The position numbers and the translations under genes are program-made. DNA of 64,000 nt. Origin: Octopus vulgaris. Lineage: Eukaryota. How positions within the stretch are numbered: position 1 is the stretch's first letter; the number at the start of each line of letters is the position of its first letter. The notes under the pieces are model-generated. The model saw only the letters and a program-made list of their open reading frames with translations, made no database searches and was not told the DNA's origin. Shown one piece after another: positions 14,790 to 15,465 of the stretch. The DNA lies in assembly GCA_951406725.2 (NCBI GenBank), contig OX597824.1, positions 44,082,001 through 44,146,000 of the forward strand, written 5' to 3'.

Positions 14790-14889
14790 CTATGCGCTTA
14801 GGATCAAGCTTGTCTCTACATGGCTCTTTGTAAGGCTTTAATTCTTTATCTTCATACCCAACATTGATCCAGCGGTCTCGCATAATGGT
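14790..14889 (-). CDS. MARK: MARK/Par-1 alternative exon B, TIMRDRWINVGYEDKELKPYKEPCRDKLDPKRI
   Basis: 100 nt, tctacag / gtaaat, same phase as exon A, 21/33 aa identical, no stop. Confidence 0.88.
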
Positions 14890-15365
14890 CTGTAGACCAA
14901 AAGACAAACTGATTTTCAGCACATAAAAAATAAGATAATCAAGCAAACAAATGGGTGGAAGAGACAACCACAAAGCCCACTTAGAGATGACAACAACAAA
15001 TACGACAAAGCTCTGAAACAAAAAAAAATAATGCATGAAAAAAAAAACAAAAAAACTGCATGCAAAGGATTTTTGACAGGTATCTCTCTGTAAGAATCCT
15101 GGTGTCCTGAGAAAAGAGACATATTGCACTGCAGCAGCAGACCTTCGCAGGATGTCCCTTAGCACAGCCACTAGATCAGCAGGGCGACAAATAAAAGTAA
15201 TTGTAAACATAATGGTGGTGGTGGTTGTGGTGGTGGTGGTGGTGGTAGTGATGATGATAAGAATAATAATGCCTGTTCAGCCTGTTGCTTCCACTCCCAT
15301 GGTATGGAAACAAAATCTGAACAAGCTCATAGGATCATCATTTTTTTTTATATATATACAATTAC

Positions 15366-15465
15366 CTATTCGAAGTGGATCATTTATGTCAGGTGGTGGT
15401 TCTACATAAGGCTTAAGTTCATCATCCTCGAAACCTATATTCATCCACTTGTCCTTCATTATTGT
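15366..15465 (-). CDS. MARK: MARK/Par-1 alternative exon [34 protein letters not shown]
   Basis: 100 nt, gtaacag / gtaatt, phase 0-1; matches the MARK kinase end / CD-like EDDE motif / linker. Confidence 0.92.

Follow-up and report, generated by a model that had tools for sequence, protein, structure and literature searches.

The window, by which we mean the whole stretch of 64,000 nucleotides of Octopus vulgaris DNA analyzed here (contig OX597824.1, positions 44,082,001 to 44,146,000), contains part of a MARK/Par-1 kinase gene on its reverse strand (Table 1). When the eight upstream exons (47350 to 23919) are joined to the exon that we call A, their translation is exactly that of O. vulgaris protein P0018 over 754 nt, which identifies the window as carrying an Octopus MARK/Par-1 gene. 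The host gene has the MARK/Par-1 architecture of kinase domain, CD motif, UBA domain, spacer, and KA1 domain; in P0018 and P0008, the Pkinase and KA1 matches lie above the Pfam cutoff and the UBA match below it. The UBA and KA1 exons are not in the window, and the N-terminal exons were not found in it. Motif and tblastn searches of the window found neither the UBA exon nor two optional insert exons (described below); the preliminary description, which proposed to map junctions to the UBA exon, needs correcting to that extent.

Table 1. Features of the MARK/Par-1 gene and of the exon pair in the window
Feature	Position	Strand	Length	Remarks
MARK kinase exon	47297..47350	(-)	54 nt	5'-most of the coding exons located in the window
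MARK kinase exon	33978..34026	(-)	49 nt	
MARK kinase exon	32668..32733	(-)	66 nt	
MARK kinase exon	30528..30598	(-)	71 nt	
MARK kinase exon	29370..29426	(-)	57 nt	catalytic loop
MARK kinase exon	28137..28272	(-)	136 nt	DFG and activation loop
MARK kinase exon	25953..26053	(-)	101 nt	
Upstream kinase exon shared by A and B	23919..24038	(-)	120 nt	phase 0 at its 3' end; supplies the donor to A and to B
Branch-point-like TACTAAC	15498..15504	(-)		about 33 nt 5' of the A acceptor, within a 120-nt AG-free zone
Exon A	15366..15465	(-)	100 nt	upstream copy; phase 0-1; net charge -4; CD motif EDDE
A-B intron	14890..15365	(-)	476 nt	GT-AG
TGCATG, candidate RBFOX-type element	15059..15064	(-)		302 nt after the A donor
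Exon B	14790..14889	(-)	100 nt	downstream copy; phase 0-1; net charge +2; CD motif EDKE; basic linker

Exons A and B encode homologous peptides. They are identical at 62 of 100 nucleotides and 21 of 33 residues, and the codon differs at 9 of the 21 residues that they have in common (uncorrected divergence: pS, 0.83; pN, 0.28). The length, spacing, AG/GT sites, phase, and residue identity given in the preliminary description, as well as its remark that shared residues use different codons, were all confirmed. In a PDB search with the two peptides, all 20 of the 20 matches listed were MARK1-4 chains (best E values, 7.7e-12 for A and 4.9e-09 for B); the resemblance to MARK is therefore not due to chance. 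Both peptides map onto the same MARK2 residues, with A matching at 47 bits versus 38 bits for B. A repeat search around the two exons returned only microsatellites and short chance pairs.

The reading frame tolerates exactly one of the two exons, as had been claimed. When the upstream exon is joined to A and then B, the 12th codon after A is a stop, and skipping both joins a phase-0 donor to a phase-1 acceptor (the downstream phase being deduced from exon ends and protein models). Equal length, equal phase, canonical splice sites, and homologous sequence for one protein region, by which duplication-derived mutually exclusive exons are recognized, are all found here. A and B are tandem duplicates of one ancestral MARK/Par-1 exon, with one used per mRNA.

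Several other features of the window were recorded. A MARK intron contains, on the same strand, a match to U6 snRNA over its full length (40797-40906 (-); Rfam RF00026; 97 bits; model positions 1-105 of 105), which may be a gene or a retrocopy; a degenerate TTAGGG-like array lies just downstream of it (40410-40501). A GC-rich nested tandem array with periods of 62, 354, 33, 40, and 79 nt occupies 54092-55967 in AT-rich surroundings, and long tracts of AT/AC microsatellites (58237-58843 and 53787-53928) yield long spurious open reading frames (ORFs). Broken ORF pieces around ~9650-10270 (-) look by eye like LINE endonuclease, and an Octopus bimaculoides MARK model extends into sequence similar to these pieces.

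Splice junctions and gene models

Junctions were taken from assembled contigs of 4 runs (of 24 listed) from two studies, over positions 14300 to 31000. The runs were taken as RNA by guess, and their joints skip GT-AG introns; stretches without contig cover were left out of the evidence. The junction into B (23919->14889) was present in X21 (contig depth, 58.4) and X23 (39.4), and the junction into A (23919->15465) was present in X24 (13.8) and X9 (212.1); among the joints listed, each of the four runs had only one of the two junctions. No A-to-B joint was found among the 15/26 joints listed. The contigs containing B, and that of X24 containing A, agree with the exons at every letter. The B contigs leave at the B donor and run on for 1270 and 1238 letters beyond the stretch, and B-UBA joins are present in annotated proteins; the X9 contig proceeds from A through a 7-residue insert to the UBA exon (its loose end was read by eye against protein models).

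Both upstream junctions that the preliminary description had proposed to map were thus recovered, including the one into B, the absence of which, together with loss of the frame or splice sites of B in related species, it had named as grounds for giving up the pair. Its claim of one exon per mRNA is borne out by these two junctions together with single-copy isoforms in 14 named species, and we regard mutually exclusive splicing of this conserved pair as nearly certain. Since contigs drop rare variants, the A/B split coincides with the study, and the tissue is unlabeled, the division of the junctions between runs suggests only that the choice is regulated.

Both isoforms are already present in NCBI for O. 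vulgaris and Octopus sinensis, as unremarked models. In models of Pinctada imbricata and Mytilus coruscus, A and then B are merged through intron read-through, and O. bimaculoides models continue from B into the intron. Because the contigs that contain B depart from the window at its donor, we judged this last read-through, which also occurs in one further ORF, to be a likely prediction artifact. The expectation that automated annotation could miss the pair is only partly right: it failed for O. vulgaris and O. sinensis, although the models just described for P. imbricata, M. coruscus, and O. bimaculoides point the other way. The pair explains the faulty merged gene models of the bivalves.

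Distribution, age, and constraint

The distribution of the two forms was drawn from homolog searches and cluster look-ups, with counts referring to the matches listed and with queries biased toward B. A and B occur as separate isoforms in at least 13 named molluscs and in the nemertean Tubulanus polymorphus, the two 822-residue isoforms of which differ at 15 positions, all within residues 300-330. The molluscs comprise cephalopods (O. vulgaris and O. sinensis), scallops (Pecten maximus, Argopecten irradians, and Mizuhopecten yessoensis), other bivalves (Mytilus galloprovincialis, Mytilus californianus, Crassostrea virginica, and Saccostrea echinata), and gastropods (Bradybaena similaris, Babylonia areolata, Pomacea canaliculata, and Elysia crispata). 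Among the matches listed, only B was seen in, e.g., Sepia pharaonis, Tegillarca, Ylistrum, and Ostrea, and only A was seen in Solemya. Each named annelid has a single form, which is A-like in Platynereis and Capitella and B-like, with 32 residues, in Paralvinella. The comparison with other cephalopods and molluscs suggested in the preliminary description thus recovered both forms. In the arthropod entries (29 from Schistocerca spp., 25 Penaeus-type, and 7 from Zootermopsis), each species had a single form. The same exon borders recur in genomic ORFs that resemble vertebrate MARKs.

A scan of metagenome contigs, in which 80 loci were kept from 184 confirmed stretches, yielded a tandem pair in four annelid-like loci (L001, L010, L014, and L016). 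The upstream copy in these pairs is 100 nt long and the downstream copy 97 nt (that of L010 is cut at the contig end). In L001, the upstream exon, A, B, and the UBA exon follow in a row, and the spacer exons of this locus best match annelid and annelid-like proteins. The order A then B holds in the window, in the merged Pinctada and M. coruscus models, and in these 4/80 metagenome loci. At a 12-bit threshold, 23 of the 24 loci with both flanking exons and introns have a single copy, 16 of them being near relatives of one another. In a 50%-identity library, the sole two-stretch match among the best 150 of 800 (P0364) yielded only one copy in a pattern search. Among insect-like sequences, an alternative donor seems to add three residues at the exon end (P0326, P0335, and P0349 versus P0394), and several ORFs have no intron before this exon, so that the junction there may vary by a different route.

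In a tree built on 33 columns, octopus A is placed with the A copies of gastropods and octopus B with the B copies of other molluscs. A weakly supported branch (56/41) separates the 19 B rows from the rest. A clade uniting octopus A and B was rejected (p-AU, 0.0065), so the duplication predates cephalopods and is far older than the window alone, from which the preliminary description had called it old, can show. The mollusc classes split in the Cambrian. Clades uniting A and B within Tubulanus (p, 0.185) or within L001 (p, 0.148) were not rejected, and neither was a single clade of all B and the annelid-like downstream copies (p, 0.45); with annelid-like rows added, B requires two changes on the tree.

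We consider one lophotrochozoan origin, with later loss in some lineages, to be likely. Independent duplications in the three groups (molluscs, nemerteans, and annelid-like animals), each converging toward a second copy with less acidity, appear unlikely to us, although the unrejected A+B clades of Tubulanus and L001 and the 97-nt length of annelid-like B exons would agree with them and such recurrence is reported for ACOX1 (PMC8373072). What speaks for common descent is that the same exon is duplicated, in the same order where the order is known, that B copies share an Arg at position 6 and a non-acidic CD residue, and that the clade of all B copies is compatible with the data. This alternative concerns history only and can be combined with the functional reading preferred below.

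The comparison of L001 with L014 gives pN/pS values of 0.037/0.50 (A) and 0.105/0.56 (B). The low pN relative to pS in both copies agrees with the earlier view that each is constrained and is consistent with purifying selection on A and B alike, with B evolving faster than A in this comparison. The B peptides of octopus and cuttlefish are identical (33/33).

The pair belongs to a well-known splicing class, the substitutions derived from tandem exon duplication (PMC8373072; PMC5740500; PMC4165533), in which homologous tandem exons of equal length and phase are likewise used one per mRNA, with a length not divisible by three and deep conservation. The class includes the kinases MAPK8, MAPK14, and PRKCB (PMC8373072); unlike it, the MARK pair was found only in lophotrochozoan-type sequences. 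In the PMC8373072 supplement, a human catalogue, MARK1-4 occur 0 times and the control MAPK8 occurs 5 times, and MARK1-4 gave 0 matches, in a search without a positive control, in the human MXE supplements of PMC5740500. The accessible text of the Caenorhabditis elegans survey does not name par-1 (PMC4165533). For Drosophila, par-1 appears in a list of genes that have mutually exclusive exons (PMC3303723), a comparison that goes by the listing alone; arthropod entries, in contrast, carry one form of this segment per species. Tissue-specific exons of octopus are covered in bioRxiv 10.64898/2026.09.05.749416, of which the accessible text does not name par-1 and the supplements might list the event. 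Our full-text literature search, mostly outside subscription journals, found no description of the pair. A and B are therefore an ancient and apparently undescribed pair within a known class.

How exclusion could work

The TACTAAC upstream of the A acceptor is branch-point-like. Within the A-B intron, the branch-point-like site closest to the A donor is 108 nt away, and a steric block is not expected; steric exclusion, which calls for less than 50 nt between donor and branch point, was rejected on this ground and on that of the intron length, and in related loci the spacing between A and B is 1222-1938 nt. Incompatibility of U2 and U12 sites was also rejected, as the donors (GTAATT and GTAAAT) are not of the U12 type. 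A search for Dscam-type RNA pairing over nine region pairs with 12 shuffles each gave no clear signal, with eight pairs inside the shuffled range and one marginally past it (-44.3 versus -43.8). A and B may instead exclude each other by regulated competition for the shared upstream donor at 23919.

One accepted criterion for mutual exclusivity is an exon length that three does not divide (PMC5740500), and in C. elegans nonsense-mediated decay (NMD) cleared the nonproductive isoforms in 14/19 non-3n clusters (PMC4165533). As an exon of 100 nt shifts the reading frame, mRNAs with both exons or with neither are likely to be removed by NMD.

The A-B intron contains a candidate RBFOX-type element (Table 1). 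GCATG occurs 163-302 nt after the upstream copy in 5/5 two-copy loci, and TGCATG occurs within 400 nt after it in 4/5 two-copy versus 12/50 single-copy loci, against a background of 0.66 per kb in the introns of the window. In L001, L010, and L014, the motif falls in an aligned block, L010 and L014 being close relatives. RBFOX mostly activates exons from downstream and represses them from upstream (PMC11874969), so the element would favor A where RBFOX is active, possibly in neurons or muscle. As the motif was picked after looking, it is a weak lead to a regulator of the choice. Separately, about 60 nt of intron right after the upstream copy is conserved (L001:4101-4165, L010:540-601, and L014:401-462), with synonymous sites 50% diverged, and this block is likely splicing regulatory.

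What the swap may change

The exon covers residues 290-322, i.e., the end of the kinase domain (to 297 by Pfam), the CD motif, the linker, and the start of the UBA domain (from 318). The CD motif has been defined as ExxE, where x is E or D, with EGEE in MARK4, and a role in cofactor docking has been proposed for it (PMC2604893); residue exposure is taken here from published descriptions. EDDE in A conforms to this definition, and EDKE in B does not. Exon position 15 is Asp in 14/14 A rows and Lys, Arg, Ser, or Asn in 18/18 B rows of 33 residues; one 34-residue B row was excluded from column counts, and 19 B rows enter the charge mean. Position 6 is Lys in all A rows and Arg in all B rows, and position 25 is Lys or Arg in 18/18 B rows and 0/14 A rows. 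The mean net charge is -3.9 for A (14 rows) versus -0.2 for B (19 rows), and B is the less acidic copy in 11/11 A/B pairs (one of which joins two Mytilus species). As the A and B labels of named proteins were assigned from sequence, these class counts are partly circular; in the downstream copies defined by position (L001, L010, L014, and L016), the motif always contains a non-acidic residue. Of the best 150 of 800 library matches, 143 have an acidic residue at position 15. B-like features also occur in single-copy exons (EDNE in Holothuria, EDKE in one fish entry, and Arg at position 6 in Penaeus), and the B-like form of Paralvinella retains EDDE.

Vertebrate MARK1-4 share the acidic ExxE motif with A (PMC2604893), and B, unlike them, places a basic or polar residue in it. 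Vertebrates vary this segment between paralogous genes, as with MARK4, whereas the lineage with A and B varies it by splicing. There is a parallel in the NALCN pore exons, where invertebrate alternative exons, in molluscs among others, also swap an acidic residue for lysine (EEEE versus EKEE/EEKE) and vertebrates are reduced to one form (PMC3557258). NALCN differs in that its swap affects the selectivity filter of an ion channel and that a tissue bias has been measured in snail (PMC3557258); A and B exchange a putative docking motif and linker in a kinase.

In cephalopod models, optional inserts of 7 and 17 residues directly follow the exon, at the UBA start. Their exons lie outside the window, between B and the UBA exon, and the 7-residue one (21 nt) is of micro-exon size. 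All eight A/B-insert combinations are present across two Octopus annotations, and only A with the 7-residue insert was recovered in a contig, that of X9. The listed bivalve and gastropod entries have no such inserts, save for one extra Glu in some scallop A isoforms.

The swap is most likely a regulated switch of docking surface or linker. More specifically, the acidic CD motif and linker of A would be exchanged in B for a charge-neutralized version, altering partner binding at the CD site, where docking itself is a proposal of the literature; the MARK literature that we examined names no binding partner for the motif. That the main effect is such a charge switch at the CD site seems to us somewhat better than an even bet, and it has to be set against vertebrate MARK4, which functions with EGEE (PMC2604893). 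The swapped linker might instead reposition the UBA domain relative to the N-lobe and αC, altering basal activity or dependence on LKB1 rather than partner docking. MPK38/MELK, a related kinase, has a UBA linker that clips αC into the active position, and a linker residue of MARK1 touches αC weakly (PMC3940201). In octopus, 6/12 of the A/B differences fall in the linker and UBA start (residues 310-320), and the cephalopod inserts join at the same place, the models with 17 additional residues losing the Pfam UBA match. However, the sharpest class-wide difference outside the linker lies in the CD motif, and the MPK38 linker has a conformation unlike that of MARKs (PMC3940201), so that we hold a primary linker effect to be possible but the lesser prospect.

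It is also conceivable that A and B are nearly equivalent, each needed in the cells that splice it, with their differences reflecting drift under general constraint. Their 21 common residues, the single copy in several lineages, and the faster evolution of B would fit, but class-specific residues are kept across three mollusc classes and the nemertean, the charge shifts in the same direction in every pair, and B has stayed identical between octopus and cuttlefish; we find near equivalence improbable. The notion of B as a silent pseudo-exon, or as a duplication produced by the assembly, could draw on the O. bimaculoides read-through models, but it is refuted by two runs that have B spliced, without mismatch, to the upstream exon; together with the conservation of B across phyla and a DNA identity to A of only 62%, this leaves it practically no probability.

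Read broadly, the docking switch would be a cell-type switch conserved since before the split of molluscs, nemerteans, and annelids, with RBFOX driving A in neurons or muscle and B used elsewhere, the CD docking site turned on or off, and two cephalopod micro-exons extending the choice to up to eight linkers. We put this forward tentatively and consider it doubtful in its entirety. If it were true, the natural A/B pair would identify the CD-site partner of MARK kinases. A and B are a naturally selected pair that keeps or removes the CD charge, held across mollusc classes and apparently longer, and so offer a ready contrast for partner finding. The same contrast can serve the study of cell-type-dependent tuning of polarity and microtubule kinases in the embryos and nervous systems of spiralians.
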